Source: Escherichia coli (lineage in GTDB: Bacteria; Pseudomonadota; Gammaproteobacteria; Enterobacterales; Enterobacteriaceae). From it: 64,000 bases of DNA. The notes under the pieces were generated by a model that saw only the letters and a program-made list of their open reading frames with translations, did not search any database and was not told the origin of the DNA. Of this stretch, positions 18,168-50,430 are shown piece after piece. The stretch is from NCBI RefSeq assembly GCF_003334815.1, contig NZ_QOWO01000006.1. One strand, 5' to 3'. A program made the position numbers and the translations under genes. Position 1 is the stretch's first letter; each line of letters begins with the position of its first letter.

Positions 18168-18196
18168 CAACAGTCCTTATTAATGAGAAATCCTTC

Positions 18197-18610
18197 TCAC
18201 GCAATTTTTCTGGCCATCAGATAGATGGCCGGTTCCTGCACAATTTCATCCAACAGATGAATGAATTGAATGCTACGCGCCTGCCACACAGACGTCGCGT
18301 CATCCGCCAGTGGCGCGAATGCCCGGGTCAACAGGGCGGTGTGGCTGGCGTCAATAACAATCTCACCAAAAGTCATCACCCCCAGCATCTTACGTCGGGC
18401 TTGCTCCTCTTCGACCAGTGCAAGCCAATCTTCGTATTCCGTCAGTGGGCAGCGGAAGGCGACATTCAGACAATCAATCACGCCAACGTGATGGCCGATA
18501 GCTAGCGAGTAATACATTACCTGAGAGCTGTGTTCCGGCATCTCGTCGCTACTGGCGACAAACTTTTTTCGCAGCGTCCAGAAAACAATTTCCCCGCACA
18601 CTTCAGTCAT
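18197..18610 (-). CDS. hyfJ: Hydrogenase-4 maturation/assembly factor HyfJ (HycH-like)
   Basis: Track ORF 18197..18673; start taken at internal ATG ([17 protein letters not shown]...) giving 137 aa; overlaps hyfI stop by 8 nt. Confidence 0.85.
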
Positions 18611-19361: not shown

Positions 19362-19903
19362 AGCTGCTCCTTAGCCACCAGCAGTACATCTGTATCGTCG
19401 TTGATCAGCGTCGCGCGTTGTTTGCATTCCGGGCAGACGCTCGCTTGCGCCCACAACATTTCGCGGTTTTGTGGCGCATTTTGTTGCTGTGCTAACAATT
19501 CAGCAGCCAGTGCGATGGTTTTTTGCGGGGCAAACGGGCGTTCGCAACGGCTGCAACGTTGTAGATGGAACGTCGCGCGGGTATAGAGATCGGCTTTATT
19601 GGTGACGGTCAGTTCAAAGTTATTGGTAAGCTGGATGGCTCTGGTCGGGCACACTTCTTCACAACGTCCGCAGTAAATACAACGCCCCAGATAGAGCTGC
19701 CAGGTGCGCGAATTTTGCTGGTCGTCGGTCTGGATAGTCAGCGCATTTGCCGGACAAGCACAGGCGCAGGCACCGCAGGCAATACATTGGCTGGGCATCA
19801 GGTCCGGTTTTCCGCGAAAGCCAGGGCTGACCTCCAGTGGCGCGAAGGGATATTTCACCGTCGCGGTTCCGGCGCGCATAATAGTTTTCAGTAACTTCAG
19901 CAT
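19358..19903 (-). CDS. hyfH: Hydrogenase-4 ferredoxin-type subunit HyfH (2x[4Fe-4S])
   Basis: 181 aa; two CxxCxxCxxxCP ferredoxin motifs ([24 protein letters not shown]). Confidence 0.93.
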
Positions 19904-19912
19904 CTTCTGTCC

Positions 19913-23150: not shown

Positions 23151-23154
23151 CTCA

Positions 23155-23805
23155 TTATCCCTTCAGCGCGGTCAAGTTGTTCACGTCCAGCGTGCCGTGG
23201 GTACGCCATATTTTTCTTGCCAGTAACACCATCACAATGACGGCGAAGATGGCGTCGGTAGCGATACCTATTTCCACCAGTTCCGGTGCTCGCCAGGCAA
23301 GAAGCGCCAGCACCAGATGGGAGCCGTTTTCCATCAGGCAGTAACCAAAAATTTGCCGCAGGATATTGCGCTGGCTGACAATGCACAGCAGGCCAAGCAG
23401 AAAATGACCTAACGCTACCGCCAGCGCCGGTTTCAGCCCGGTAGCCATCGGTAGCTTCACGGGCTGAACGACAAATGCGCAAAGCAGGACAATTAACGCC
23501 GCGAGCAGTGCCATCATTGCCGGACCGAATAACGCTTTTTCCGGGATGTTCTGGGGAATATTTCGTGCAGCGTAAGTCATGATTAACGGTACCAGCAGCA
23601 CTTTGGTGATAAAGGCGCTGGCGGACCAGATCAGCAGTTGCTCTGCGGCGAACAGGCACGAGAGAGTGGCGAAAATAGACACCAGCACCAGTGACTGGCA
23701 GGCGTAAAATCCGCATGACAGGCGATAGCTTTTGACGCTAATCACAAACAGCGATGTCAGCATCATCAGTCCCGCCAGATTATTTACGATCATAGAACCG
23801 GTCAT
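23155..23805 (-). CDS. hyfE: Hydrogenase-4 membrane subunit HyfE
   Basis: 216 aa hydrophobic ORF. Confidence 0.92.
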
Positions 23806-23816
23806 TCATCATCTCC

Positions 23817-25256
23817 TTACTGCAACCAGGTCGCGGCGATTACGCTGGAAATCAGCGACATCACAATCAGTACAATCAACACCAGGCGCATTGATCCTGG
23901 CAGCGGTGCGGCATCGGCGACGGCCTCGCTCGGTTTGCCAGGCACAACGCGACCAAACCAGCGAATAAACCAGGCGAAACTGGCGACCGATTCAATCATC
24001 AGAAGAATCATGGCGGGCAGCAGGATCCAGTACTCCACTGACAACGCAAAACCGGCAGCAAACAGCGGGAATTTACTGAAGAAGCCGTTGAACGGCGGCA
24101 CGCCGGTAATCGCCAGCGCTGCCACGCAGAAACCCACGCCTGGCAACGGCAGGGTGTGCAATACGCCACGCAGACGCGGCAACAAGCGCGTGCCGCAGCT
24201 GTAACTCAGCGCACCTGCTACAAGGAAAAACAGGCTTTTAGCGAACGCGTGGTTGACGATGTAGGCGATGCTGCCCTCCAGCGCCAGCCGCGAGCCGAAG
24301 ATGGAGAGCGACAAGCCGAAGAACATCCAGCCAAGTTGAGTGATGGTCGACCAGGCTAGCAACCGCTTCATATCCTGCTGTGGCAAATACATCAGAAAGC
24401 CATAAAGAATGGTGACCAGTGCCATGACCATGCCAACGCCGCCAATCACATGCGGGATATTGCCGCCGTCGATAATAGCGCGGGCAAAAATGTAAACGCC
24501 CACTTTCACCATCGATGCGGCGTGGAGATAGGCGCTGATCGGTGTTGGCGCTTCCATTGCGTCCGGTAGCCACGCTTGCATCGGTAGCTGGGCCGATTTC
24601 CCCCACGCGGCAAACAGGATGCCGCCATAAACCAGATAACGTGCGTCGCCGTGTAACTCGCTCATCGCGCTAAGCGCAAACGTTCCGGTCTGCAAAAACA
24701 GCGTGGCGGCGGCAAGATACAACCCCAACGAGCCGATATGAGTGATAAGTAACGCTTTTAGTGCTGAACGCTGCGCTTTATCGCTCTGGTAATAACTGAT
24801 CAACGCCCAGGAGCAGCCGCCTGTAATTTCAAAAAACAACAACTGACCGAGCAGCGTCGAGGAGAGTACCAGTCCCGCCATCGCGCCGATAAACACCAGT
24901 AAAAATGCGTAATAACGATTCGTGCCGTTATGCGGGTGTTCGCGATTTTTATCCGTCAGATAACCCGTGGAGTAGATCGTGACCAGCAAACCGAGAAACA
25001 CCACCACAAACAGAATCAGCGTACTCACGCGATCAATGACCAGGCCAAACAACGCCACATCCCCCACGTTGACCAACGTCAACGTGACGGCAACTTTATC
25101 GGCCTGATAAAACGCGGAGATCAGTGACAACATGCACAGCGTGGTCAGCGCGGCGAACAAAACCCCCCATTCGGCGGCCCGACGTTGTGGCGAAAACGAA
25201 ACGACCAGTGCGCCGATAAAAGGCAGCAATAACGTCGTCAGAGCAAGATTTTCCAT
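23817..25256 (-). CDS. hyfD: Hydrogenase-4 membrane subunit HyfD (NuoL/M/N antiporter-like)
   Basis: 479 aa polytopic membrane ORF. Confidence 0.93.
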   Translation of the reverse strand: MENLALTTLLLPFIGALVVSFSPQRRAAEWGVLFAALTTLCMLSLISAFYQADKVAVTLTLVNVGDVALFGLVIDRVSTLILFVVVFLGLLVTIYSTGYLTDKNREHPHNGTNRYYAFLLVFIGAMAGLVLSSTLLGQLLFFEITGGCSWALISYYQSDKAQRSALKALLITHIGSLGLYLAAATLFLQTGTFALSAMSELHGDARYLVYGGILFAAWGKSAQLPMQAWLPDAMEAPTPISAYLHAASMVKVGVYIFARAIIDGGNIPHVIGGVGMVMALVTILYGFLMYLPQQDMKRLLAWSTITQLGWMFFGLSLSIFGSRLALEGSIAYIVNHAFAKSLFFLVAGALSYSCGTRLLPRLRGVLHTLPLPGVGFCVAALAITGVPPFNGFFSKFPLFAAGFALSVEYWILLPAMILLMIESVASFAWFIRWFGRVVPGKPSEAVADAAPLPGSMRLVLIVLIVMSLISSVIAATWLQ

Positions 25257-25272
25257 ATTCCGTCAGTGCTCC

Positions 25273-26220
25273 TTACAGACCGGTTAACCAGAAGACCCAT
25301 GCAAGCGCAGCAAGGCTGAAGCCAAGCCAGGTCACATGGTGAATGAGTAAAAAACGCCCGCGTGCCAGCGTGTTTTCTGCGATTGAGGCCAGTACAAAAA
25401 TCAGCAAAACCTTGAGCAGCGTAACGACAAGTGAAGTCAGCAGGCAGGCGAGAGAAAGTTCTTGCGCGCGCCCAAAGGGCAGAAACAGGGCCACAAACAG
25501 TGATGCCATCACGACCTGTTTCAGCCCCAGCCCCCATTTCGCTAGCGCCAGCCCGGCACCGGAATATTCGGTCAGCGGGCCTTCCTGTAATTCCTGTTCT
25601 GCTTCAGCAACATCAAAGGGAATTTTTCCCATCTCAATGAAGCAGGCAAAACCACAGGCCAGTAACGCCAGTACGGTGGTTAGCGGCGAGTTCCAGCCCA
25701 TCGCCAGCGTATTGCTGATCATCTCGATATGCGTGGAACCTGCTATCAGCGCCAATACCAGCAGTGAGAGAATAAGCATTGGTTCGACCAGAATGCCGAG
25801 CGTCAACTCGCGACTGGCACCGACTCCCGCAAACGGACTTCCGGTATCCAGCCCGGAAAGAGCAAAGAAAAAACGAAACAGGGCAAGAAGATAGATAAGG
25901 GTGATCAGATCGCCGCCGCCCGCAAAAGGGGAAACGGTAATAAACAGTGGTAAGGCCATCGCCAGCACCAGCATGCTGCTGATTAATACCCACGGCATCA
26001 GGCGGAACATCAGACCTGAAGATGTCGGCGCAACTTCCTGGCGTTTAAACAGTTTGTGGATATCGCGATAATCCTGCCAGATCCCCGGCCCGCGGCGGGA
26101 GTGCATACGCGCGCGTATCTGCCGGGAAATACCCGTAAAAAGTGGGGTTAGCATCAGCAGAATCACGGCCTGTGCTAACGCAAAAATGACCAGATATCCG
26201 TCGCAAAGAGTTTGTCTCAT
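25273..26220 (-). CDS. hyfC: Hydrogenase-4 membrane subunit HyfC (NuoH-like)
   Basis: Track ORF 25273..26241; start taken at ATG 26220 (MRQTLCDGYLVIFALAQ...) giving 315 aa. Confidence 0.9.
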   Translation of the reverse strand: MRQTLCDGYLVIFALAQAVILLMLTPLFTGISRQIRARMHSRRGPGIWQDYRDIHKLFKRQEVAPTSSGLMFRLMPWVLISSMLVLAMALPLFITVSPFAGGGDLITLIYLLALFRFFFALSGLDTGSPFAGVGASRELTLGILVEPMLILSLLVLALIAGSTHIEMISNTLAMGWNSPLTTVLALLACGFACFIEMGKIPFDVAEAEQELQEGPLTEYSGAGLALAKWGLGLKQVVMASLFVALFLPFGRAQELSLACLLTSLVVTLLKVLLIFVLASIAENTLARGRFLLIHHVTWLGFSLAALAWVFWLTGL

Positions 26221-26230
26221 GGTGATTTCC

Positions 26231-28249
26231 TTAGACGGCAATAGCGATTAGCAGCACAACCAGTGCGGCGACCACATACAGGCAATAGAGACGAAAGTCG
26301 CCGCTTTGCAGATGCTGTATTTCTTTGGCCAGCCGTTGGGTGGCGCTCACGATGGGGCGGATCACCCGCTCATCCCAGAAGGGTTCTGTGCTCTGAGCCC
26401 TGGCGGTGACGTGCGCAAGACCTTTATTTAGCCTCAGCGTAGGGTCGAGCTGTTGTCGTAGACGAAATAGCGCAGAAAAGACCACACGCAGCGGCTGCAT
26501 CACGCCATTGCCTGACGGGGCCATCGCATTTTCCCAGCCGTAGCCGCATGCCCAGGCATCTCCTGTGCGACGAAACGCTGCGCGGCGCGAACGACACCAC
26601 AGCCAGTAAAGGCCAGGCAGCAAAGGCATCGCCAGTAGTAACAGCAACAGTAATGAGGGGGTGACCTGTGTATGAAACGTGCCGGGTACAAGTGCTATTC
26701 CGCTGGCGACAGTGGCGGGAGGGGTATTGGTAAACGCATGGGCAATATGCATTATCTTCGGTGCCAGCCAACTGGCACTAAGCGCAATTAATACGCAGAG
26801 TGCCGCGAGCAGTAGCATGGCGACGATCATCGTATTTGGCACTTCCTGTGCCTCTTCAGCGTGTGTACTGCGCGGCGCACCACAGAAAGTAATACCGTAC
26901 ATTTTTACGAAGCACATTACTGCCAGCCCACCAGTGACTGCCAGCATTACCATAGCAATAGGACCCGCAAGTTGTAGCGCTACGGCTTCCACACGACTTA
27001 GTGAGAACAGCGACTGCCAGGTGTACCATTCGCTGATAAAACCATTCAGCGGAGGAATGGCTGATATCGCGAGGCAACCAATCAGGCATGCTGCGGCTGT
27101 CCACGGCATCCGTTTCGCTAGTGCCCCCATTTTTTCCATGTCGTGGGTATGCAAACGCGAAATAATCGCTCCCGCGCCGAGAAATAGCAGCCCTTTGAAC
27201 AGCGCATGGTTGAGCAGATGAAACAGTGCGCCGAGCAGTCCAACCACGGTGAGCAGCGGGTCGTGCAGTGACAGACCGACCATCGCCACACCGACTGCCA
27301 GCAAAATAATGCCGACGTTTTCGACGGTACTCCAGGCCAGCAGCCGTTTGATATCCTGTTCCGCCAGCGCATATAGCACGCCCAGGAGCGCGGAGATTGC
27401 GCCGATCGCCATCACCAGAATGCCCCACCACAGAGGCAAACCCGTTTGCGCCAGCAGATCCATCGCTACTTTCAGGATGCCGAAAATACCTATTTTGACC
27501 ATTACGCCAGACATCAACGCCGAAGCGTGCGATGGTGCGGCAGGGTGAGCGCGCGGCAACCAGCTGTGCAACGGCATCATCCCGGCTTTCGCGCCAAAAC
27601 CGAAAAAGGCCAGCAGGAACACCGCCGACGCCAGCCCCGGAGAAAGTGAAAGCGTGCGGAAACTGGCAAAATCGAGGCTGCCGCTTTCGCGCCCCATCAG
27701 CAAGAAGGCGATCATTATCAGCACCGATCCGGCGTGGGCGATAAAAAAGTAGAGCATGCCAGCGTTGATCGACGTTTTATCCTGCCTGGCAATGACCAGA
27801 AACCAGGAAGACAGCGACATCATTTCAAACAGCACGATGAACCAAAAAGCGTTGTCCATCACCAGCAGGGCAACCATCGATGCGATGAAAATATTCATAA
27901 AGAAGCCCATCGCCGCCGCGCCTTTGCCCTCGTATTCGCGCATATAAGTCAATGAATAGAGAGAACAAACCACCACCAGCAAGGAGATAACCAGCACCAT
28001 AAATGCCGAGAGGCTATCCATTCGCAGGGTTAAATCGGCAAATTCAAAAGGGGTGGCAAAACGGGCGACTAAAGTTACACCAGCATGTAATTGCGTAATT
28101 CCGCTGATGATGCCAATCACGCCGCCCACCAGCGATGTGATGCCGGAAAGCTTAATAGCCAGTCTGTCCAGACCGAGTAAAAACAGCGAAGCCAGACTAG
28201 CAAACAGATAGAGAATCAGCGACCAGGTTAATAATTGCAGGGCATCCAT
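26231..28249 (-). CDS. hyfB: Hydrogenase-4 membrane subunit HyfB (NuoL/M/N antiporter-like)
   Basis: 672 aa polytopic membrane ORF. Confidence 0.93.
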   Translation of the reverse strand: MDALQLLTWSLILYLFASLASLFLLGLDRLAIKLSGITSLVGGVIGIISGITQLHAGVTLVARFATPFEFADLTLRMDSLSAFMVLVISLLVVVCSLYSLTYMREYEGKGAAAMGFFMNIFIASMVALLVMDNAFWFIVLFEMMSLSSWFLVIARQDKTSINAGMLYFFIAHAGSVLIMIAFLLMGRESGSLDFASFRTLSLSPGLASAVFLLAFFGFGAKAGMMPLHSWLPRAHPAAPSHASALMSGVMVKIGIFGILKVAMDLLAQTGLPLWWGILVMAIGAISALLGVLYALAEQDIKRLLAWSTVENVGIILLAVGVAMVGLSLHDPLLTVVGLLGALFHLLNHALFKGLLFLGAGAIISRLHTHDMEKMGALAKRMPWTAAACLIGCLAISAIPPLNGFISEWYTWQSLFSLSRVEAVALQLAGPIAMVMLAVTGGLAVMCFVKMYGITFCGAPRSTHAEEAQEVPNTMIVAMLLLAALCVLIALSASWLAPKIMHIAHAFTNTPPATVASGIALVPGTFHTQVTPSLLLLLLLAMPLLPGLYWLWCRSRRAAFRRTGDAWACGYGWENAMAPSGNGVMQPLRVVFSALFRLRQQLDPTLRLNKGLAHVTARAQSTEPFWDERVIRPIVSATQRLAKEIQHLQSGDFRLYCLYVVAALVVLLIAIAV

Positions 28250-28866
28250 TAGCGTTGCTCCTGAGTGAGGGAAAGGGGATCCTCCCCGCCATTGGCAAAC
28301 CAGCTTGCGGCAAGGCGCTGTTTTTCTTTCATCTGACGTTGCAGGCTATCACCGGTGATCAGCCGTAACGCCTGATTCGGGCAAGCGCGAACGCAGGCCG
28401 GACCTTCTGGCAAGAAATCACACAGGTCGCATTTCACCGCGACGGTCTGGACACCAGGTTCCCAGCGCAGCAAAGCATGTTGTGTTGGCGCGTTTTCTTC
28501 GCCGTCTTTGAGTGAGCCTTCAGCCTGAAAAACATATTGCGCATGGGCATTCACCGGACGGCTTCCTGAAGCGCTGATTGCGCCAAATGGGCAGACCACG
28601 GCGCAAAGCTTGCAGCCAATACAGAGGCTTTCGTTGAGTTGGATCGCATCATCCCTCTGAGAGATGGCATTGACCGGGCAGACCTGCAGGCAAGGGGCTT
28701 CCTCACAGTGATGACACACGACAGGGGCAGTGATTGTTGACGTCTTCGCCAGGGCCAGGCGCGGGTGTTGCTGTAAACCTTGCGTTTTATGCACGTCCGA
28801 ACAGGCAGCGAGACAGGTATTACATCCTGTACACCACAGTGGTTCGGCCACCACAAAGCGGTTCAT
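28249..28866 (-). CDS. hyfA: Hydrogenase-4 Fe-S subunit HyfA (4x[4Fe-4S] ferredoxin)
   Basis: Track ORF 28249..28905; start taken at ATG 28866 (MNRFVVAEPLWCTGCNTCLAACS...) giving 205 aa; AAGGAG 8 nt upstream. Confidence 0.9.
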   Translation of the reverse strand: MNRFVVAEPLWCTGCNTCLAACSDVHKTQGLQQHPRLALAKTSTITAPVVCHHCEEAPCLQVCPVNAISQRDDAIQLNESLCIGCKLCAVVCPFGAISASGSRPVNAHAQYVFQAEGSLKDGEENAPTQHALLRWEPGVQTVAVKCDLCDFLPEGPACVRACPNQALRLITGDSLQRQMKEKQRLAASWFANGGEDPLSLTQEQR

Positions 28867-39358: not shown

Positions 39359-42300
39359 TTATTCCGGGCGCGGCTTCAGCGGGAAGCGGCGGCGCACCAG
39401 CACAAAGAACAGCGGCACGAAGTAAATAGCCAGAATAGTGGCCGAAATCATCCCGCCCATTACGCCAGTACCCACCGCATGCTGACCACCGGAACCGGCA
39501 CCCGTGCTGGTTGCCATTGGCAATACGCCGAAGATAAATGCCAGCGAGGTCATCAGAATCGGGCGTAAACGCTGACGGCAGGCGTGGAGCGTCGCTTCAA
39601 ACAGGTCGTGGCCTTTTTGGTTCATCTCGTTAGCAAACTCGACGATCAGGATGGCGTTTTTCGCCGATAAACCAATGACCGTTAACAGGCCCACCTGGAA
39701 GTAAACGTCGTTTTCCAGCCCGCGCATCCAGGTTGCCAGCAGCGCGCCGATTACCCCCAGCGGCACGACCAGCATTACCGAGAACGGCACCGACCAGCTT
39801 TCATACAACGCAGCCAGACACAGGAATACCACCAGCAAGGAAATGGCGTACAGCGCCGGAGCCTGCGCGCCGGAAAGCCGCTCCTGATACGACATCGCCG
39901 TCCACTCCAGACCAAAGCCGTTTGGCAGCTGCTTCACTAACGATTCCATAATATCCATCGCCGTACCGGTACTGACCCCCGGTGCGGCTTCCCCAACAAT
40001 CTCAACCGCAGAATAACCGTTATAGCGTTCCAGACGCGGCGAGCCTGTTTCCCAGCGTGAGGTCGCGAAAGCAGAGAAGGGCACCATGCCGCCATCTTTA
40101 TTTCGGACATACCAGAGATTGATGTCATCTGGCAGCATGCGATACGGCGCAGCTGCCTGCACATAGACTTTCTTCACGCGACCGCGATCCATAAAGTCAT
40201 TCACATAGCTCGAACCCCAGGCGGTTTGCAGTGTGTCGTTAATATCGTCGATAGCAACGCCCAGCGCCTGAGCTTTACGCTGGTCGATATCAATCTGCAA
40301 CTGCGGACTGTCGTCGAGGCCGTTATGGCGCACACGGGTTAGCTCCGGGTTTTCCGCCGCCAGCGCCAGCAACTGATTACGTGCTGCCATCAGCGCATCG
40401 TGACCCGCTCCAGCGTGGTCCTGCAACTCCATATCAAAACCTGCAGAACTACCAAGACCGCTAATTGCTGGCGGGCTGCTGGCGATAACGCGAGCTTCTT
40501 TAATTTGGTTAAACGCCTTCGTTGCACGCTCGATAATGGCAAACGAGGTGCCGGTCTTACTGTCGCGTTCGCTCCAGTCTTTCAGGCGGATAAACATTCG
40601 CGCCACGTTTTGCCCGTTACCCCCAGGGCCAGAACCAACGGTGGCAAACACCGACATGATGTTGTCTTTTTCATGGGTGAAGTAGTATTTCTCGATTTGC
40701 TCAACGACTTTCAGGGTCTGTTGTTGCGTTGAACCGCTGGGCAACTGTACCGAGGTAGTAAACATGCCACGGTCTTCCAGCGGTAAGAACGACGTCGGCA
40801 AACGCAGGAACAGGAACACCATGCCGCCAAGCAGCAGGACATAAATCACAATCCAGCGCAGGCTACGGTGGAGAATTTTCGCCACCCCTTTTTCGTAGCG
40901 TTCGGCGTTGCGGTTAAACATCTGGTTAAACCAGGCAAAAAAGCCTTTTTGCCCATGATGCTCACCTTTTTTCAGTGGCTTAAGTAGTGTGGCACACAGA
41001 GCCGGAGTGAGGATCATCGCTACCAGTACTGACAGCACCATCGCCGCAACAATGGTAATAGAGAACTGGCGATAGATGGCACCGGTGGTGCCGCCGAAGA
41101 AGGCCATTGGTACAAATACCGCCGAAAGAACCATCGCAATCCCGACCAGTGCCCCCTGGATCTGCCCCATCGATTTACGTGTGGCTTCGCGAGGAGTGAG
41201 TCCTTCCTCACTCATAATACGTTCGACGTTTTCCACCACCACGATGGCGTCATCCACCAGCAGACCGATCGCCAGCACCATCGCGAACATGGTTAAGGTG
41301 TTGACGCTGTAACCGAAGGCGTAAAGTACGGAGAAGGTTCCCATCAACACCACCGGCACGGCGATAGTGGGTATCAGCGTGGCGCGGAAGTTTTGCAGGA
41401 ACAGATACATAACGAGGAAAACCAGAGCGATAGCTTCCAGCAGCGTTTTCACCACGTCTTCAATGGAGGCTTTAACAAACGAGGTGGTTTCATACGCCAC
41501 CTTGTATTCCAGTCCATGCGGGAAATACTGCGCCAGCTCGTCGAGACGATTGAGCACCAGCTCCGCTGTCGCCATTTCGTTAGCGCCGGAGGCCAGTTTT
41601 ACCCCCAGCCCGGAGGCTGGCTTACCATTGAAGCGGCTAAGATAATCGTATTTCTCCGCCCCCATTTCGACGGTGGCGACATCGCCCAGCCTTACCTCTG
41701 AGCCGTCCTGATTGACCCGCAAGGTGATATCGCGGAACTGTTCTGGTGTTTGCAGCAGTGACTGGGCGTTAATGGTGGCGTTGAGCGCCTGCTTATCGAC
41801 GGAAGGTGTACCACCAAGTTGCCCAACCGCAATCTGCGCGTTCTGTGACTCAATGGCATCAGTGACATCTTTAGCCGTCATCTGGAAACTGTTGAGTTTC
41901 GCCGGGTCCAGCCAGATACGCATGGAATATTGCGAACCATAGGCATCGATATCCCCGACGCCATTCACGCGGCTTAACGGGTCCTGAATATTACTGGCAA
42001 CATAATCAGCAATATCCTGTTTATCCATCGAACCATCGGTAGAGACGAAGGCAATGGTCAGAATGTTGGTATCGCCGGTTTTACGCACCGTCACGCCCTG
42101 ATTTTGCACCGCCTGCGGTAACTTTCGCATGGCTGATTGCAGCTGGTTTTGTACTTGCTGCACGGCTTCGTCCGGATCGGTGCCTGCTTTAAAACTTAAA
42201 GTGACAGATGCCTGACCGGTGCCACTGCTCTGAGATGACATATACATGAGATTATCGAGGCCGGTCATATTTTGCTCGATAACCTGGGTCACGGTGTTTT

Positions 42301-42472
42301 CCAGCGTCTGGGCCGATGCGCCGGGATAGTTAGCGGTCACTCGCACATTCGGTGGCGCGAGATCGGGGTATTGTTCAACGGGCAATGAAAAAATCGCCAG
42401 GGTACCTGTCAGACACAACAGGATTGCCAGCACCCAGGCAAAAATGGGGCGATCAATAAAGAAATTCGCCAT
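39359..42472 (-). CDS. acrD: RND multidrug/aminoglycoside efflux pump AcrD
   Basis: 1037 aa, [41 protein letters not shown]...; RND transporter. Confidence 0.95.
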
Positions 42473-42635
42473 TAAAAGAGGACCTCGTGTTTCTGCGTAT
42501 CGTTGTAGGCTTGACTTGCTTCACTGTAGCGGCAAGGTACGAGCCAATCGTGGAGAAAAAAAGGAGTTAATGTAAATTATCATGCCCTTTTATACTGAAC
42601 CTTAAGTGCAAGTATTCTTTGGTCAGTAGGAGGCA

Positions 42636-44336
42636 TTACATTAACTGACTTTCCTCACCCTCCGCAGAGCGAAAGCTAATACTCACTAACGTGCCGCCGC
42701 CGGAAGGTTGTGAAAAAGTCAGCGTCCCACCTAGCCGTTCCGCGCGTTCGCGCATGATATTCAGACCATAATGACCTTCGGGTTCTTTCGGTTCACCGAT
42801 ACCAATCCCGTTATCACGGATATAAACCGTGTGATTGCCGTCCGGCGCGGTGACGCAACTGACGGCGATTTCGCTGGCGTTGGCGTGCTTCATCGCATTC
42901 AGCACCGCTTCGCGAATAATTTGCAACAAATGCACCTGCATTTGCGCATCCAGTGCCAGGGTTGGCAGACGGCAGTCGAGGGTCAGTTTGGCGCTGGTTT
43001 GATTTTGTAACGTATCCAGCATTTCCCTCAATGCGGAGGGGAGATCCGCCTGCTGCAGCGTCAGGCGGAAAGTAGTCAACAGCTCGCGTAACTGCCGATA
43101 AGCATCATTCAACGCCTGGGAAAAATCGGCCATGATACTTTGTGCGGTGGCGTTATCTTCCGGTATCGAACGCTTCAGTAACGTCAACTGGATACGTAAG
43201 TAAGAAAGTACCTGAGCCAGCGAGTCGTGCAATTCGCGGGCGATGGTCGCACGTTCTTCCATCAACAATAATTGCTGAAAATGCTTCTGCGCCTGATTAA
43301 AGTACAAACCGCGTCCCAGCATCGACGAAACGCTGTTAAGCAGCGGTTCTGATGATGAAACGTGACTATTTTGCCAGTGCAGTTCGCCGTAAACCGTCTC
43401 TTGCATTGTCACCGGTAAAATCTGCATCGGCAATTCCGGGTTTGGTTGCCCTTCGCTAATCCGCCAGTTTTCACCGACATTTAACTCCAGATATTCAGCC
43501 GCTTCATTGTCGCGAACAATCTGCAAAATATGGCGGAAACAATGCACATCAATCTGGCTAGTGTTCAGCGCCTGCGAACACTGATACAACACCTCCAGAC
43601 GACGCTTGGCCTCGTGGAGATCGCGGGTCTTTTCTTCTACTGACGCTTCCAGCGAACGGTACAATTTATGCAGCTCGCTCGACATCTGGTTAAAGGTTTT
43701 TGCAAGCAGACCAAGCTCATTCGGCAGGTTGGTATCCAGCGGCGGCGAGTCGAACTGCCCGTGTTCAATACGCTGACTGGCGGTAACCAGCTGATTCAGC
43801 GGGGCAACCACCTGATGGCGTATGCGGCGCAAAGTAAAAAAGACCAGCGTGAAAATACCGATGCCGCCAGCCAGGGAAATCGCCACCACCAGCAGCATTT
43901 TGCGTTCAGCGTAGTGCTGTAAAGCCAGTACGAACAGGTCTATCTGATTAACATAATTATTAATATTGGCCTGATACCACGGCAAATCGCCCTTGCTGAG
44001 CCGATTATTCATCTCCAGCCAGTTGGCATTCAGATGCGCATAGCGAGTTTTTACTGCTTCTGGCACATACCAGACGTTGAGGTTGGTTAATACCGGTGAA
44101 TGCAGTGCCTGCTGAAATAACTGGCGATGTGCATTGAGTTGTGGACTGCCACTTTGCAAGTCGTAGCCCAGGCGGTAACTCTGCATACGCAGCGATCCGG
44201 CAATATTGATAGCCTCAGCGTCGCGCAAACTGCTCGCCAGAGTTAGCAGAGCGATACCCGTGGAAAGAATCGACAGCAGCACAATGTAAAAAAAGGCCCG
44301 GGCCAGACTGGCCGAGACGGGTCGTTTAACAATCAC
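42636..44336 (-). CDS. narQ: Nitrate/nitrite sensor histidine kinase NarQ
   Basis: Track ORF 42636..44360; start assigned to GTG 44336-44334 giving (M)IVKRPVSASLARAFFYIVLL..., 566 aa; conserved His in ELHDSLAQ. Confidence 0.9.
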   Translation of the reverse strand: MIVKRPVSASLARAFFYIVLLSILSTGIALLTLASSLRDAEAINIAGSLRMQSYRLGYDLQSGSPQLNAHRQLFQQALHSPVLTNLNVWYVPEAVKTRYAHLNANWLEMNNRLSKGDLPWYQANINNYVNQIDLFVLALQHYAERKMLLVVAISLAGGIGIFTLVFFTLRRIRHQVVAPLNQLVTASQRIEHGQFDSPPLDTNLPNELGLLAKTFNQMSSELHKLYRSLEASVEEKTRDLHEAKRRLEVLYQCSQALNTSQIDVHCFRHILQIVRDNEAAEYLELNVGENWRISEGQPNPELPMQILPVTMQETVYGELHWQNSHVSSSEPLLNSVSSMLGRGLYFNQAQKHFQQLLLMEERATIARELHDSLAQVLSYLRIQLTLLKRSIPEDNATAQSIMADFSQALNDAYRQLRELLTTFRLTLQQADLPSALREMLDTLQNQTSAKLTLDCRLPTLALDAQMQVHLLQIIREAVLNAMKHANASEIAVSCVTAPDGNHTVYIRDNGIGIGEPKEPEGHYGLNIMRERAERLGGTLTFSQPSGGGTLVSISFRSAEGEESQLM

Positions 44337-44540
44337 ACGCGTCTTCTCCACAAAAATCATTAATGTTCCAGTTCGCTGAAACGCAATTTAGTCAGTGATG
44401 GGATTATTTGATCTGCCACAGTTTATAGCGAAATAGTTACTTATTCTGGGCACATGAACATTGCCGATTCCCCTGTAAGTCGGGTAATAACAACACTCAT
44501 ATAAAGAATAAGGTTTTTACAACCAAAAAAGAAGGTCGTT

Positions 44541-46520
44541 ATGAATCGTTTTATTATGGCCAACAGTCAGCAATGTCTGGGTTGTCATGCTTGTGAAATC
44601 GCCTGTGTCATGGCTCACAATGATGAGCAACATGTCCTGAGCCAACACCATTTTCATCCCCGAATTACGGTTATCAAACATCAACAGCAACGTAGTGCAG
44701 TGACCTGTCACCATTGTGAAGATGCGCCCTGCGCCCGTAGCTGCCCTAATGGCGCAATCAGCCACGTTGATGACAGCATTCAGGTCAATCAGCAAAAGTG
44801 TATTGGCTGTAAATCCTGCGTGGTGGCCTGTCCTTTTGGTACGATGCAAATCGTCCTGACACCCGTCGCGGCAGGAAAAGTAAAAGCCACGGCGCATAAA
44901 TGCGACCTTTGTGCGGGGCGCGAAAACGGTCCTGCCTGTGTTGAGAATTGCCCGGCGGACGCGCTGCAACTGGTCACTGACGTCGCACTCTCCGGCATGG
45001 CGAAATCCCGCCGCTTGCGCACCGCGCGTCAGGAACATCAACCGTGGCATGCCAGTACCGCGGCGCAAGAAATGCCGGTAATGAGTAAAGTCGAACAAAT
45101 GCAGGCAACGCCCGCGCGTGGCGAGCCGGATAAACTGGCGATTGAAGCGCGCAAAACCGGTTTTGATGAAATTTATCTGCCATTTCGCGCCGACCAGGCA
45201 CAACGGGAAGCCTCGCGCTGCCTTAAGTGCGGCGAGCACAGCGTTTGTGAATGGACCTGCCCGCTGCATAACCATATACCGCAGTGGATTGAACTGGTGA
45301 AAGCCGGAAACATCGACGCCGCCGTCGAGCTTTCTCACCAGACCAACACCCTGCCGGAAATTACCGGACGCGTTTGTCCGCAAGACCGTTTGTGTGAAGG
45401 TGCCTGTACTATTCGCGATGAGCACGGCGCGGTAACTATCGGCAACATTGAACGCTACATTTCAGATCAGGCGTTGGCGAAAGGTTGGCGTCCTGACTTA
45501 AGCCATGTCACCAAAGTGGACAAGCGGGTGGCGATTATCGGTGCAGGTCCGGCAGGGCTGGCCTGTGCGGATGTTCTGACCCGCAATGGCGTGGGGGTGA
45601 CGGTGTACGATCGCCATCCAGAAATCGGTGGCTTGCTCACTTTCGGCATTCCTTCTTTCAAACTGGATAAATCCCTGCTGGCACGCCGTCGGGAAATCTT
45701 CAGCGCGATGGGGATTCACTTCGAACTCAATTGTGAAGTGGGTAAAGATGTCTCTTTGGATTCGCTTTTGGAACAATACGACGCGGTCTTCGTTGGCGTA
45801 GGCACTTACCGTTCCATGAAAGCGGGTTTACCCAATGAAGATGCGCCGGGCGTTTATGACGCGCTGCCGTTCCTCATTGCCAACACTAAACAGGTGATGG
45901 GGCTCGAAGAGCTACCGGAAGAGCCGTTTATCAATACCGCCGGACTTAACGTCGTGGTACTGGGCGGCGGCGACACCGCGATGGACTGTGTGCGTACCGC
46001 ACTGCGCCACGGCGCGAGTAACGTCACCTGCGCTTATCGTCGTGATGAAGCTAACATGCCAGGCTCGAAGAAAGAAGTGAAGAACGCCCGCGAAGAGGGG
46101 GCCAACTTCGAATTTAACGTCCAGCCGGTGGCGCTTGAGCTGAATGAACAAGGTCACGTCTGCGGGATTCGTTTCCTGCGCACGCGTCTTGGAGAGCCGG
46201 ATGCCCAGGGGCGTCGGCGTCCAGTGCCGGTGGAAGGCAGTGAATTTGTCATGCCAGCCGACGCGGTGATTATGGCGTTTGGCTTCAATCCGCACGGGAT
46301 GCCGTGGCTGGAGTCGCACGGTGTAACGGTAGACAAATGGGGCCGCATCATCGCGGATGTGGAAAGCCAGTACCGTTACCAGACCACCAATCCGAAAATC
46401 TTCGCTGGTGGTGACGCCGTGCGTGGTGCGGATCTGGTGGTTACCGCAATGGCAGAAGGACGTCATGCGGCACAGGGGATTATTGACTGGCTGGGGGTAA
46501 AATCAGTCAAATCTCACTGA
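44541..46520 (+). CDS. aegA: Fe-S/FAD-NAD(P) oxidoreductase AegA (ferredoxin-like N-terminus fused to GltD-like domain)
   Basis: 659 aa; N-terminal 4x Cys clusters (CLGCHACEIAC, CHHCEDAPC, CIGCKSCVVACP, CDLCAGRENGPACVENCP); GltD-like C-terminal half with GAGPAG dinucleotide motif. Confidence 0.93.
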   Translation: MNRFIMANSQQCLGCHACEIACVMAHNDEQHVLSQHHFHPRITVIKHQQQRSAVTCHHCEDAPCARSCPNGAISHVDDSIQVNQQKCIGCKSCVVACPFGTMQIVLTPVAAGKVKATAHKCDLCAGRENGPACVENCPADALQLVTDVALSGMAKSRRLRTARQEHQPWHASTAAQEMPVMSKVEQMQATPARGEPDKLAIEARKTGFDEIYLPFRADQAQREASRCLKCGEHSVCEWTCPLHNHIPQWIELVKAGNIDAAVELSHQTNTLPEITGRVCPQDRLCEGACTIRDEHGAVTIGNIERYISDQALAKGWRPDLSHVTKVDKRVAIIGAGPAGLACADVLTRNGVGVTVYDRHPEIGGLLTFGIPSFKLDKSLLARRREIFSAMGIHFELNCEVGKDVSLDSLLEQYDAVFVGVGTYRSMKAGLPNEDAPGVYDALPFLIANTKQVMGLEELPEEPFINTAGLNVVVLGGGDTAMDCVRTALRHGASNVTCAYRRDEANMPGSKKEVKNAREEGANFEFNVQPVALELNEQGHVCGIRFLRTRLGEPDAQGRRRPVPVEGSEFVMPADAVIMAFGFNPHGMPWLESHGVTVDKWGRIIADVESQYRYQTTNPKIFAGGDAVRGADLVVTAMAEGRHAAQGIIDWLGVKSVKSH

Positions 46521-46587
46521 TAGCCTGCGCAGACAAACCCGACTTCACAGCGTAAGATAATTGTTCATTTCGCGCTGTGGAGTCGGT

Positions 46588-47163
46588 ATGACGCAACAAA
46601 TCACCCTCATTAAAGACAAAATTCTCTCCGATAACTATTTCACCCTGCACAACATTACTTACGATCTCACGCGCAAAGACGGCGAAGTTATCCGCCATAA
46701 ACGTGAAGTGTACGATCGCGGCAATGGTGCGACGATCCTCCTGTACAACACGAAGAAAAAGACCGTGGTTCTGATTCGTCAGTTCCGTGTCGCTACCTGG
46801 GTTAATGGCAATGAAAGCGGGCAGCTGATTGAAAGCTGCGCCGGGCTGCTGGATAACGACGAACCGGAAGTGTGTATTCGCAAAGAAGCGATTGAAGAGA
46901 CGGGCTATGAAGTGGGTGAAGTGCGCAAATTATTTGAACTGTATATGTCGCCAGGCGGTGTGACTGAGCTAATCCACTTTTTTATCGCCGAATACAGTGA
47001 CAATCAGCGCGCTAACGCCGGTGGCGGTGTCGAAGATGAAGATATTGAAGTGCTCGAGCTGCCGTTCAGCCAGGCGCTGGAGATGATCAAAACCGGCGAG
47101 ATACGTGACGGTAAGACGGTGTTATTGCTTAACTATTTGCAAACGTCACATTTAATGGACTGA
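46588..47163 (+). CDS. nudK: Nudix GDP-mannose pyrophosphatase NudK
   Basis: ATG 46588, [26 protein letters not shown]...; Nudix box region [21 protein letters not shown]; 191 aa. Confidence 0.9.
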
Positions 47164-47288
47164 AAAATAACAATAATATTTCGTTGTTTATTATTGGCTC
47201 AATCCGACAAATCCGATTGAGCCGCGCTACCTGCGCAACGAAGATACGACTTGTGCTGTTTGTTTGAACTTCTGGGGTCGTACCGTCC

Positions 47289-48332
47289 ATGCGCTATCGC
47301 ATTTTCCTTCTCTTTTTTTTCGCTTTGTTGCCGACGTCTTTGGTGTGGGCGGCACCAGCGCAACGGGCGTTTTCCGACTGGCAGGTCACCTGTAATAACC
47401 AAAATTTCTGCGTGGCGCGTAATACGGGCGATCATAATGGACTGGTGATGACCCTGAGCCGCAGCGCCGGGGCGCATACCGATGCCGTTTTACGTATTGA
47501 GCGCGGCGGATTGAAGTCGCCGGAGGCGTCAGAAGGGGAGATAGCGCCACGGCTGCTGTTAGATGGCGAGCCGTTGGCGTTAAGTGGTGACAAGTGGCGG
47601 ATTTCACCATGGTTATTAGTAACCGATGATACGGCAACCATCACCGCGTTTTTGCAGATGATTCAGGAAGGGAAGGCAATCACCTTACGCGATGGCGATC
47701 AGACCATTTCTCTGAGTGGCTTAAAAGCAGCGTTGTTGTTTATTGATGCTCAGCAAAAGCGCGTTGGCAGTGAAACCGCGTGGATCAAGAAAGGGGACGA
47801 ACCGCCGCTCAGCGTACCGCCCGCGCCTGCGCTGAAAGAGGTCGCGGTGGTTAACCCAACGCCGACGCCACTCTCACTCGAAGAACGCAACGATTTGCTG
47901 GATTATGGAAACTGGCGGATGAATGGTCTGCGCTGCTCGCTTGATCCATTGCGTCGTGAGGTGAATGTCACTGCGCTGACTGATGATAAAGCGCTGATGA
48001 TGATTAGCTGTGAGGCAGGGGCCTATAACACCATTGATTTGGCATGGATTGTGTCGCGTAAAAAGCCACTAGCTTCGCGCCCGGTTCGGTTGCGTTTGCC
48101 GTTCAACAACGGTCAGGAGACGAATGAACTGGAACTGATGAACGCAACATTTGATGAGAAATCGCGTGAACTGGTGACCTTAGCGAAAGGGCGCGGATTA
48201 AGCGATTGTGGCATTCAGGCGCGCTGGCGCTTTGACGGTCAGCGTTTTCGCCTGGTGCGTTACGCCGCAGAACCCACCTGCGATAACTGGCATGGGCCAG
48301 ACGCCTGGCCCACGTTGTGGATCACCCGTTAA
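47289..48332 (+). CDS. ypfG: DUF1176-type periplasmic protein YpfG
   Basis: 347 aa with signal peptide (MRYRIFLLFFFALLPTSLVWAAPAQ); function unknown. Confidence 0.88.
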   Translation: MRYRIFLLFFFALLPTSLVWAAPAQRAFSDWQVTCNNQNFCVARNTGDHNGLVMTLSRSAGAHTDAVLRIERGGLKSPEASEGEIAPRLLLDGEPLALSGDKWRISPWLLVTDDTATITAFLQMIQEGKAITLRDGDQTISLSGLKAALLFIDAQQKRVGSETAWIKKGDEPPLSVPPAPALKEVAVVNPTPTPLSLEERNDLLDYGNWRMNGLRCSLDPLRREVNVTALTDDKALMMISCEAGAYNTIDLAWIVSRKKPLASRPVRLRLPFNNGQETNELELMNATFDEKSRELVTLAKGRGLSDCGIQARWRFDGQRFRLVRYAAEPTCDNWHGPDAWPTLWITR

Positions 48333-48347
48333 ACAAAATGGCGGGAC

Positions 48348-48420
48348 ATGTAGGCCGGATAAGACGCTGTAGGCCGGATAAGACGCGTCAGCGTCGCATC
48401 CGGCAATCAGCATCCGGCAA
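48348..48420. repeat. REP cluster between ypfG and tktB
   Basis: Tandem GTAGGCCGGATAAGACGC units followed by GTCAGCGTCGCATCCGGCAATCAGCATCCGGCA. Confidence 0.8.
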
Positions 48421-48426
48421 TCACCA

Positions 48427-50430
48427 TCAGGCACCTTTCACTCCCAGCACCTTATGCGCTTTTGCCACAATATTCTCGGCGGTAAAGCCAAAGAACGGGA
48501 ACAGCTTATCCGCCGGAGCAGATTCCCCGTAACCCGTCATCCCGACAATTGCCCCTTTCAGACCAACATACTTGTACCAGTAATCGGCAATACCTGCTTC
48601 CACCGCCACGCGAGCCGCAACGTTAGAAGGCAACACCGACTCCCGATATTCCTCATCCTGGGCGTCGAAAATATCGGTCGAGGGCAGGGAAACTACGCGT
48701 ACATTGCGACCTTCTCCTGCTAATTTCTCTGCCGCTTGCAGGGTAATTTCCATCTCTGAACCGGTGGCAATCAGAATAATATCTGGCTTACCGCCGCTGT
48801 CTTTCAGCACATAACCGCCACGAGCAATCTCTTTAACCTGATCCGGCGTACGTTCCACCTGGGCCAGATTCTGCCTTGAGAGGATCAGTGCCGTCGGTCC
48901 GTTGTGGCGCTCAACCGCCAGCTTCCAGCCCACCGCCGCTTCCACCTGATCGCACGGTCGCCAGGTGCTGAAATTTGGCGTTAAGCGCAGGCTGGCCAGT
49001 TGCTCAACAGCCTGGTGCGTCGGACCATCTTCGCCCAGGCCAATTGAGTCGTGGGTATAAACCATAATCTGCCGCGCTTTCATCAGTGCCGCCATCCGCG
49101 CGGCGTTACGGGCGTATTCAACAAACATCAGGAACGTCGCGGTATACGGCACAAAGCCGCCGTGGTGCGCGATGCCGTTGGCGATAGCGGTCATGCCAAA
49201 TTCACGCACCCCGTAGTGAATGTAGTTGCCCGCTGGATCTTCCTTCAGCGAAACAGAACCTTTCCAGATGGTCAGGTTGCTGGGAGCCAGATCCGCCGAA
49301 CCGCCGAGCAACTCAGGCAGCATCGGCCCGTAAGCGTTAAGCGTATTTTGCGAAGCCTTACGGGTAGCGATTTTCGCCGGATTTGCCTGTAACTCATTGA
49401 TATATTTCTGAGTCGTTTTCTCCCAGTCCTTCGGTAAACCACCGCTCATCCGTCGGGTAAACTCTTCTGCCAGTTGCGGATGAGCCTTTTTATAGGCGGC
49501 AAACTTCTCATTCCAGCTCTGCTGCGCTTTTTCGCCTTTTTCACGGGCATCCCAGGCGTGATAAATCTCTTTAGGGATCTCAAATGGCGGATGGTGCCAG
49601 CCCAGTTTTTGCCGTGCCAGCGCCACTTCTTCTTCCCCCAGTGGTGCGCCGTGCGCCTCTTCCTTACCTGCTTTATTCGGCGAACCAAAGCCAATCACCG
49701 TACGGCAGATAATCAGCGACGGCTTATCTTTCACGCTTTGCGCTTCAAGGATCGCTTCCTTCACCGCCTGCGGATCGTGACCGTCGATTTCATGGATCAC
49801 ATGCCAGTGATAGGCTTCAAAACGTTTTGCCGTATCGTCGGTAAACCAGCCTTCTGTTTCACCGTCGATGGAAATACCGTTGTGATCGTAAAAACCAATC
49901 AGCTTGCCCAGTCCCAGCGTGCCTGCCAGCGAACAGACTTCGTGGGAAATACCTTCCATCAGGCAGCCGTCGCCCATAAACACATAGGTGAAGTGATCGA
50001 CGATCTCATGGTCTGGCTGGTTAAACTGCGCCGCCAGTGTACGCTCTGCTATCGCCAGCCCGACGGCGTTCGCCAAACCTTGTCCAAGCGGGCCGGTGGT
50101 GGTTTCAACGCCTGGCGTATAGCCAATCTCCGGGTGGCCTGGGGTTTTCGAATGCAACTGACGGAAGTTCTTCAGTTCTTCCAGCGGCAGGTCGTAACCG
50201 GTCAGATGTAGCAAACTGTAGAGCAGCATCGACGCGTGACCGTTGGAAAGAATAAAGCGGTCGCGATCATACCAGGTTGGGTCGGTAGGGTTATGTTTAA
50301 GAAAATCGTTCCACAGCACTTCGGCAATATCAGCCATGCCCATCGGCGCGCCGGGATGACCAGAGTTGGCTTTTTGTACCGCATCCATACTGAGTGCGCG
50401 AATCGCATTGGCAAGGTCTTTTCGGGACAT
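48427..50430 (-). CDS. tktB: Transketolase 2
   Basis: Track ORF 48427..50493; start taken at ATG 50430 ([32 protein letters not shown]...) giving 667 aa. Confidence 0.95.

Follow-up and report, generated by a model that had tools for sequence, protein, structure and literature searches.

The aegA gene of Escherichia coli: a ferredoxin-GltD fusion protein, its FNR-bound upstream region and its possible route of electrons in formate-dependent urate degradation

The aegA locus and its neighbours

The window analysed here is a stretch of 64,000 nucleotides of Escherichia coli (contig NZ_QOWO01000006.1 of RefSeq assembly GCF_003334815.1). A long open reading frame in it lies divergent to a sensor kinase gene, and the genes and spacer concerned are as follows.

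42636-44336, minus strand: narQ, divergent to aegA, for the nitrate/nitrite sensor kinase (566 aa, RefSeq GTG start at 44336)
44337-44540, no strand: narQ-aegA intergenic region (204 bp; GC 38% versus 56% in aegA)
44541-46520, plus strand: aegA coding sequence, an ATG open reading frame of 659 aa plus stop, with K-12 identity and a match to NF009408
46588-47163, plus strand: nudK, 67 bp 3' of aegA on the same strand

Is the reading frame at 44541-46520 a genuine gene, and is it aegA as first named? Its DNA is 100% identical to the E. coli K-12 records annotated aegA, and the gene was found in 5426 of the 5426 complete E. coli genomes searched. The protein scores 1397 bits against the NCBIfam AegA equivalog NF009408, whose curated cut-off is 1003 bits, with residues 1-659 on profile positions 1-659. 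Compared with E. coli AegA (b2468; NF009408), the window gene is identical and the neighbours are alike, the order acrD-narQ / aegA-nudK-ypfG being that of the K-12 aegA chromosomal locus. A Shine-Dalgarno sequence, GAAGG, precedes the gene at 44531-44535 and is kept in five genera in the sequence alignment. The reading frame is genuine and is the aegA of E. coli K-12, and the name first given to it is correct. RefSeq and NCBIfam give its product as 'formate-dependent uric acid utilization protein AegA'. What the gene is, how it is regulated anaerobically and what it does physiologically have already been published and have entered the RefSeq product name, and the finding of the scan is not new.

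The divergence from narQ is as first described, but the 180-bp spacer is not: that length would follow from an upstream narQ ATG at 44360, while the RefSeq GTG start gives 204 bp. The narQ calls in other genera, at 564-566 aa, also point to the shorter protein. From one MG1655 record the window departs solely by an A5/A6 homopolymer run in the spacer upstream of aegA, at about 44351-44356, and this difference would shift the upstream narQ ATG out of frame. On the other side, no terminator-like site was predicted between aegA and nudK, and the gene order aegA-nudK-ypfG is retained in Kosakonia, Kluyvera and Citrobacter. A search of Rfam over 42000-48500 gave no RNA element, only a sub-threshold match to the REP-like naRNA4.

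Regulatory sites upstream of aegA

The following sites were considered in the spacer.

44408-44421, no strand: FNR-type site TTGATctgcCACAG, left half-site perfect, right half poor
44438-44444, plus strand: NarL heptamer TACTTAT, a single exact copy 17 bp downstream of the FNR site
44447-44465, no strand: conserved upstream block CTGGGCAnATGnACATTGCC, invariant bar two positions in five genera
44497-44513, plus strand: conserved block TCATATAAAGAATAAGG, containing a TATAAA hexamer resembling a -10 element at 44500-44505

Anaerobic regulation had been guessed at in the preliminary description. A published FNR ChIP-chip target lies at aegA/narQ; its sequence maps to 44404-44427, and the site reported in it is the reverse complement of TTGATctgcCACAG. 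In vivo binding of FNR upstream, as given by this target, places aegA in the FNR regulon. Five genera share the part TTGATCTGC(C/T)ACA of the site without change, and one of these loci has no narQ. The ChIP-chip target in the spacer and the invariance of the site in five genera bear the guess out. On the reading favoured here, aegA is expressed under anaerobic conditions, from a promoter region that is bound by FNR and depends on an activator.

Which promoter could this be? The transcription start of aegA is listed as unknown in the FNR ChIP paper, and a consensus sigma-70 scan of the plus strand of the spacer gave no promoter. A class II FNR promoter, with the site at -41.5, was considered and fits poorly: it needs a -10 element near 44444-44449, where TTCTGG is not -10-like and the TATTCT of E. 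coli is not conserved. For sigma-54, no GG-N10-GC (-24/-12) element was matched in the spacer at up to three mismatches, so the spacer is not classed as a sigma-54 promoter region. The block at 44447-44465 was also tried as such a promoter and dismissed, because the spacing from GGCAC to TTGC is two bases too long and no ChIP-seq site lies there; the only sigma-54 site reported near aegA is 869 bp upstream, within narQ.

There is a further question of what the adjacency of narQ means. It had been taken as evidence for regulation, and it fails as such: aegA of Kluyvera, which has no narQ beside it, keeps the upstream footprint, and a distant orthologue is found at another locus. The divergent narQ would also imply a role of AegA in nitrate or nitrite respiration, which we regard as very improbable. 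All that speaks for it is the adjacency itself, the title of a 1996 paper, which implies that the regulation responds to nitrate, and the one NarL heptamer. The heptamer (TACYYMT, typically paired) occurs once in the spacer, outside any 7-2-7 pair, and is not conserved outside E. coli, which makes it weak evidence. Going by the abstract of the 1996 aegA study, the gene is reportedly repressed, not induced, by nitrate. Against the role, the adjacency is lost in Kluyvera and at the distant orthologue, AegA shows no two-hybrid interaction with FdnH or NarH, aegA is dispensable for an anaerobic NO-scavenging activity, and no aegA mutant with a nitrate- or nitrite-dependent phenotype has been reported.

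Domain architecture and relatives of AegA

AegA consists of a ferredoxin domain fused to a flavoprotein module, and the coding sequence divides as follows.

44541-45029, plus strand: HydN/HycB-like ferredoxin domain (residues 1-163; 16 Cys in four motifs)
45153-45485, plus strand: Fe-S subdomain of GltD/DPD type, Pfam Fer4_20 (residues 205-315; 9e-38; 7 Cys)
45525-46460, plus strand: FAD/NAD(P)H-binding domain, Pyr_redox_2 (residues 329-640; 2e-23)

Four N-terminal Fe-S cysteine clusters had been noticed from the start, and they hold. The motifs are CxxCxxCxxxC (residues 12-22), CxxCx4Cx3C (56-68), CxxCxxCxxxC (87-97) and CxxCx8Cx3C (121-137), and the 16 Cys are invariant in 120 orthologues. 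Judged by sequence, the 16 Cys of residues 12-137 would suffice for four [4Fe-4S] clusters, and with its four motifs of the CxxCxxCxxxC type the domain has the four-cluster, 16-Cys pattern of the HycB/HydN-type ferredoxin fold. HycB (7z0s_B) matches it at 2.3e-34, and the HydN model (NF007658) aligns on residues 1-163 with 175 bits. HydN is a free protein of about 180 aa and its equivalog cut-off is 260 bits; at 175 bits the domain is not HydN proper, and it is taken as a homologous domain instead. The 16-Cys pattern and the sequence similarity are common to AegA and the HydN, HycB, YsaA and HyfA ferredoxins of the formate hydrogenlyase network, where HycB is the Fe-S subunit paired with formate dehydrogenase H (FDH-H). 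These ferredoxins are free subunits, while in AegA the equivalent unit is a fused domain.

The fusion to a GltD-like FAD/NAD(P) domain is likewise confirmed, by Pfam, TIGR01318 and the structure of GltD. The GltD family matches about 470 C-terminal residues, and its E-values are so low that a chance match is ruled out. The score on TIGR01318 is 878 bits against a cut-off of 483, and GltD of A. brasilense (6s6s_G) matches at 4.7e-120, end-to-end over residues ~190-651. Together with this score, both dinucleotide motifs of a GltD-like module are present: the FAD motif G334-A-G-P-A-G339, and the NAD(P)H motif G475-G-G-D-T-A480, with Y499-R500-R501 after it. In the alignment to A. brasilense GltD, which is NADPH-dependent, AYRRDEANMPGS stands opposite CLYRRDRKNMPGS, and the GGGDTA...YRR pattern is the same in both. 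The seven Fe-S Cys of the module (227, 230, 236, 240, 279, 285 and 289), the FAD motif and the NADPH-type motif are all invariant in the 120 orthologues. These seven Cys at residues 227-289, which would stand for two more clusters, had been left uncounted before. Two [4Fe-4S] clusters take eight Cys; AegA has seven plus Thr275 at the eighth position of GltD, in residue alignments to the GltD and NfnB structures. The same Thr is found in NfnI-L of P. furiosus.

What kind of enzyme does this module make? GltD (A. brasilense 6s6s/2vdc) shares with AegA the motifs for both FAD and NADPH, and also seven of its eight Fe-S Cys. Unlike GltD, AegA has no GltB partner, carries an extra four-cluster ferredoxin domain and has Thr275 for the eighth Cys. 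No gltB-like gene was found in the neighbourhood of aegA to make a GltBD pair, and AegA is not filed as a glutamate synthase. NfnB/NfnI-L, the large subunit of NADH-dependent ferredoxin:NADP+ oxidoreductase, likewise has a GltD-like fold, with two [4Fe-4S] clusters, FAD and NADPH. Unlike it, AegA has the HydN-like domain and no adjacent gene for an NfnA-type small subunit. Such a subunit (DHODB_Fe-S_bind/FAD) is absent at the aegA loci examined, so AegA is not classed as an NfnAB-type transhydrogenase, while true Nfn-like relatives have the NfnA-like subunit beside them or fused. An apparent fusion of GltD and formate dehydrogenase, suggested by 8oh5_C ('Formate dehydrogenase-O major subunit') and 9bov_A ('Molybdopterin oxidoreductase'), was rejected, as these are actually Stn and NfnABC transhydrogenase subunits.

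AegA itself may also be asked to reduce uric acid or a purine intermediate. Iwadate and Kato, in what citing papers relate, left open a transfer 'directly to uric acid'. However, apart from its FAD/NAD(P)H and Fe-S parts AegA lacks any redox domain that would bind a substrate, a Pfam search found no FMN/DHODH-like or molybdopterin substrate domain in it, and the urate pathway has been reconstituted with XdhD-YgfM and YgfK-SsnA. We give this reading hardly any credence.

Relatives of AegA were sought in two ways. A protein search by word index returned orthologues of at least 78% identity only, and among the best 150 of a search against 50%-identity representatives there was one full-length AegA-type protein. 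A distant orthologue, 57% identical and scoring 1101 bits against the AegA model, lies at another locus, with no narQ beside it, and is followed by a separate gene for a HydN-like ferredoxin. In Pectobacterium a HydN-like ferredoxin gene has likewise been reported after the AegA orthologue. The separate HydN-like gene in both cases fits a partner that relays electrons as a ferredoxin. Other long GltD-like fusions say little on the partner of AegA, because their N-terminal modules and their partners differ.

Electron flow and urate degradation

The genetic requirement for aegA in urate degradation is published. According to papers citing Iwadate and Kato (2019), the degradation needs formate, FDH-H, and aegA or ygfT, AegA and its paralogue YgfT being genetically redundant; one citing paper adds that, in their proposal, formate dehydrogenase would pass electrons to NADP+ or directly to urate. 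The substrate was called unknown in the preliminary description. Physiologically this no longer stands, given the formate- and FDH-H-dependent urate degradation, while biochemically it does, for the direct pair of donor and acceptor. A 2021 review describes the mechanism as still pending experiment, and a 2025 paper labels AegA 'uncharacterized'.

YgfT (UacF), encoded in the xdh/yge/ygf urate cluster, has the two-module architecture of AegA; its model gives 873 bits on AegA over the full length, below the YgfT equivalog cut-off of 1154. The ygfT gene lies within the cluster, with a sigma-54 binding site upstream and strong induction by urate, whereas aegA lies outside it, with an FNR site and modest induction. 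In rich anaerobic medium urate induces aegA only modestly, and ygfT and ygfK strongly; the authors of that study concluded that aegA probably plays no part there.

Which proteins does AegA meet? In bacterial two-hybrid assays it interacts strongly with HycB, HydN, YsaA and HyfA. The pair AegA-FdhF gave 164 and 511 Miller units, at or below the threshold, and deletion of aegA left the benzyl-viologen activity of FDH-H and the production of H2 unchanged. Because of these two results, direct contact between FdhF and AegA is unsupported.

On balance, it seems somewhat probable that AegA is a cytoplasmic Fe-S flavoprotein which, with YgfT, carries formate-derived electrons through an Fe-S chain and FAD to NAD(P)+ for urate degradation. 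For this we infer which way the electrons run, which nucleotide takes them up and which protein is the physical partner. The four [4Fe-4S] clusters of the HydN/HycB-like domain would stand in series with the GltD-like module, with its two Fe-S clusters, its FAD and its NAD(P)H site. Together AegA and YgfT support the anaerobic and microaerobic degradation of uric acid, for which both formate and FdhF, the formate dehydrogenase H, are required. Formate would be oxidised at FdhF and its electrons would enter the ferredoxin domain, either directly or via HydN, YsaA or HycB-type ferredoxins. From the cluster chain they would move on to FAD and then to NAD(P)+, with NADP+ the probable form. The NAD(P)H so made would feed XdhD-YgfM (urate to isoxanthine) and YgfK-SsnA (dearomatisation). 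In the 2025 reconstitution XdhD-YgfM ran with NADH and YgfK-SsnA with NAD(P)H, both without AegA. AegA is thus not needed for the purine chemistry itself, which fits a role in supplying reductant.

Could the electrons flow the other way? Against the proposed direction, the GltD-like module of glutamate synthase and DPD, as described in the 2021 review, runs from NAD(P)H to Fe-S. AegA, being GltD-like, might then pass electrons from NAD(P)H through its FAD and out along the six Fe-S clusters to some partner reductase, such as a molybdoenzyme or an enzyme that depends on ferredoxin. Besides this working of the module in glutamate synthase and dihydropyrimidine dehydrogenase, it is favoured by a related GltD-like fusion (55% identity in the GltD part) whose operon also encodes a Mo-bisPGD reductase, a DmsB-like protein, a TorD-like chaperone and a membrane anchor of the NrfD/DmsC type. 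However, the requirement for formate and FDH-H would be left unexplained, and the urate-reducing enzymes have NAD(P)H entry sites of their own (YgfM, the FAD domain of YgfK) and run without AegA. We consider this polarity unlikely.

Another explanation, raised as a possibility in the 2021 review, is that AegA passes low-potential formate electrons directly to XdhD, YgfK or another acceptor, with the FAD/NAD(P)H site confurcating or bifurcating as in NfnB. After GltD, the nearest solved relatives are indeed the bifurcating NfnB/NfnI-L (5jca_L, 2e-93; 4ylf_B, 7e-86), and Thr for Cys at residue 275 is as in P. furiosus NfnI-L. Yet an NfnA-like partner ([2Fe-2S]/FAD, DHODB_Fe-S_bind), which true Nfn-type relatives have, is absent beside aegA here and at orthologous loci, and in vitro NAD(P)H alone suffices for the two urate reductions. 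This explanation appears improbable.

To return to the transfer of formate electrons to NAD(P)+, it is conceivable, though short of probable, that AegA, and YgfT likewise, joins FdhF and a ferredoxin of HydN/YsaA type in a soluble enterobacterial formate:NADP+ oxidoreductase, or else that AegA is an NfnB module of a new kind that confurcates electrons. As a hypothesis, the formate:NADP+ oxidoreductase is already in the literature. Now that XdhD-YgfM and YgfK-SsnA have been reconstituted, the question of the partner of AegA is open to a direct test with purified proteins. The donor and acceptor of AegA bear on the disposal of urate by gut microbes, a matter of gout and hyperuricaemia, and its partner also bears on how enterobacteria use reducing power derived from formate. 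If true, the FdhF-AegA route from formate to NADP+ would be a general path by which formate from fermentation yields NADPH, for urate reduction and perhaps also for further anaerobic reactions of reductive or stress-defence kind.

Identity and surroundings of aegA

The open reading frame at exactly 44541-46520 begins with ATG and has 659 codons. E. coli K-12-derived chromosomes are 100% identical to the window over the 3 kb around aegA, and this stretch was found in all complete E. coli genomes searched (5426/5426). The matching K-12 records annotate narQ, aegA and nudK, with the product 'formate-dependent uric acid utilization protein AegA', and the protein's score against the NCBIfam equivalog model for AegA is 1397 bits (cut-off 1003). 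Thus the window holds the acrD-narQ-aegA-nudK-ypfG-tktB region of E. coli K-12, and the assignment of this frame to aegA in the preliminary description is borne out. The feature is already known, and the interpretation offered there as a whole is supported in part only.

Features of the region (window positions)
About 15286-28866, minus strand: hyfABCDEFGHIJR-focB operon (hydrogenase 4 / formate hydrogenlyase 2 and formate channel), about 16 kb from aegA
44336, minus strand: RefSeq start of narQ (GTG, 566 aa)
44531-44535: Shine-Dalgarno sequence GAAGG, upstream of the aegA ATG
44541-46520, plus strand: aegA
47289-48332, plus strand: ypfG (DUF1176, 347 aa)
48372-48414, between ypfG and tktB: sub-threshold Rfam match to naRNA4 (REP-like; 37.5 bits, gathering score 59.5)

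How long is the spacer? The narQ gene is divergent from aegA, as had been described, but a spacer of 180 bp follows only if narQ is taken as its longest frame, from the upstream ATG at 44360; the RefSeq start gives 204 bp. The short form is favoured by the RefSeq annotation itself, by orthologous narQ calls of 564-566 aa, and by a run of five A at about 44351-44356 against six in the MG1655 record NZ_CP032667.1, which would break the frame of an extended narQ. Depending on the narQ start, this difference belongs to the spacer or to the opening codons of the over-extended frame; it could be a true polymorphism or an artefact of sequencing.

In Kluyvera (locus L007, 1560-6983) acrD is the immediate upstream neighbour of aegA, and there is no narQ at this place. 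A distant orthologue with 57% identity (locus L002, 8001-10544) passes the AegA cut-off at a different locus, not near narQ, and is followed by a separate gene for a 170-aa HydN-like ferredoxin; the same arrangement has been reported in Pectobacterium. Downstream, ypfG adjoins nudK in three other genera too and has no match among NCBIfam models. In the hyf operon, whose closeness to aegA is probably coincidental, hyfB is intact (672 aa); it is frameshifted in ER1709.

Upstream region of aegA

The spacer is AT-rich (38% GC vs 56% for aegA), and no consensus sigma-70 promoter was found on its aegA strand, as is usual where a promoter depends on an activator. Read as its reverse complement, window 44404-44427 is the published FNR ChIP-chip target of 'aegA/narQ', ATAAACTGTGGCAGATCAAATAAT. 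When upstream regions of E. coli, Citrobacter, a Salmonella-like contig, Kosakonia and Kluyvera were aligned, TTGATCTGC(C/T)ACA was invariant.

Sites upstream of aegA (window positions; blocks from the five-genus alignment)
Near 44378: conserved block CTGAAAC
44408-44421: FNR site core TTGATctgcCACAG
44447-44465: conserved block CTGGGCAnATGnACATTGCC, almost invariant
44497-44513: conserved block TCATATAAAGAATAAGG

Kluyvera keeps this footprint though narQ does not adjoin aegA there, and the distant orthologue lies elsewhere. The anaerobic link suggested earlier therefore stands, resting on the FNR site and published work and not on adjacency to narQ. A single exact NarL heptamer (44438-44444) is not conserved across the genera aligned. 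Expression of aegA reportedly rises about tenfold anaerobically, with nitrate repressing it via Fnr, NarX/NarQ and NarL. A nitrate-linked role for AegA itself is very improbable.

The CTGGGCAnATGnACATTGCC block holds a GGCAA-N7-TTGCC inverted repeat in genera other than E. coli. As a sigma-54 -24/-12 element, which it resembles, the block was rejected, since its spacing exceeds the required length by two bases. The published AtoC ChIP-positive motif GTGATGGGATTATTTGATCT lies at 44395-44414, overlapping the FNR site in its left half. The sigma-54 ChIP-seq site IA19, ACGGTACAATTTATGCA, matches exactly at 43656-43672 (plus strand) within narQ, antisense to it and pointing towards aegA, with its end 869 bp upstream of the aegA ATG; sigma-54 sites are known directly upstream of the paralogue ygfT and of the urate genes xdhA, ygeW and ygfK.

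Protein architecture

Residues 12-137 of AegA contain 16 Cys in four motifs, and the N-terminal ~163 residues match the four-cluster ferredoxins HydN (175 bits) and, from formate hydrogenlyase, HycB (7z0s_B, 2.3e-34); the fold is the same, yet the domain is not HydN. A short linker follows, and residues ~190-653 then align over their whole length with GltD, the glutamate synthase small subunit (6s6s_G, 4.7e-120), and also with NfnB/NfnI-L. The fusion of four N-terminal clusters to a GltD-like FAD/NAD(P) domain had thus been described correctly, omitting only two extra clusters within the GltD-like part.

Features of AegA (residues)
Cys motif 1: C12xxCxxCxxxC22
Cys motif 2: C56xxCx4Cx3C68
Cys motif 3: C87xxCxxCxxxC97
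Cys motif 4: C121xxCx8Cx3C137
205-315: Fer4_20 (Pfam)
227, 230, 236, 240, 279, 285, 289: seven Fe-S Cys of the GltD-like module
329-640: Pyr_redox_2 (Pfam)
G334-G339: FAD motif
G475-A480, then Y499-R500-R501: NAD(P)H motif

All 23 Cys and both nucleotide motifs are invariant among 120 orthologues, with identity down to 57%. The eighth Cys position of GltD is Thr275 in AegA (window 45363-45365), kept in 119/120 orthologues and Cys in one; Thr likewise stands at this position in P. furiosus NfnI-L. By alignment, this implies that the fourth ligand of one cluster would be non-Cys or missing. In the alignment, AYRRDEANMPGS falls opposite CLYRRDRKNMPGS of the A. brasilense enzyme, which is NADPH-dependent, and the YRR motif suggests NADP+ as the likely nucleotide.

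Electron flow and family relationships

What, then, does AegA reduce? Iwadate & Kato 2019 is reported by citing papers to have found that anaerobic urate degradation by E. coli requires formate and involves aegA and ygfT, and to have proposed that both proteins pass formate dehydrogenase electrons to NADP+ or urate; in vivo, both formate and FDH-H are needed. A 2025 study reconstituted the reductive pathway, with XdhD-YgfM converting urate to isoxanthine with NADH and YgfK-SsnA performing dearomatisation and ring opening with NAD(P)H, so that the purine-reducing steps proceed on NAD(P)H without AegA. It calls AegA and UacF (YgfT) 'uncharacterized oxidoreductases', and our literature search found no later AegA biochemistry. 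Pfam gives AegA no substrate-reducing domain beyond its Fe-S clusters plus its FAD/NAD(P)H site; direct purine reduction, though among the 2019 proposals, is hardly credible. Taken together, the missing domain, the AegA-free purine steps and the need for formate and FDH-H would fit AegA as an NAD(P)H source. The simplest reading, which we favour with some reserve, is that AegA uses low-potential electrons from formate to make NAD(P)H.

In this scheme FdhF would be the electron source, passing electrons to the four-cluster domain, possibly through a HydN/YsaA/HycB-type relay; from there they would run to the two GltD-type clusters, FAD and NAD(P)+. With formate/CO2 at about -430 mV and NADP+/NADPH at -320 mV, both textbook potentials, transfer from formate to NADP+ is thermodynamically downhill. 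Electron flow in the opposite sense, the polarity known from glutamate synthase and DPD, is unlikely; a direct wire or Nfn-like bifurcation is somewhat less likely again, AegA being similar to NfnB but without the NfnA partner, while the Nfn-like relatives examined do have NfnA-like domains. AegA has the GltD-family module but, lacking GltB, is not a glutamate synthase.

In the two-hybrid assays of Pinske 2018, AegA interacted strongly with HycB, HydN, YsaA and HyfA, and AegA-FdhF was at or below threshold; aegA deletion left FDH-H dye-linked activity and H2 production unaffected. In a 2022 preprint, urate in rich medium induced aegA only modestly, unlike ygfT and ygfK. Which proteins are AegA's direct redox partners is a question already posed in the literature.

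AegA scores 873 bits on the model of its paralogue YgfT, under the cut-off of 1154. When 1.84 billion protein representatives (50% identity clusters) were searched, the best 150 matches included just one further full-length protein of this architecture. Other long GltD-like fusions differ in modules and partners, with a Mo-bisPGD reductase operon, multihaem cytochromes or NfnA-like domains. The GltD-like unit is an NAD(P)H/Fe-S module reused widely, and proteins of the AegA/YgfT form seem to make up a narrow family, mainly in enterobacteria.
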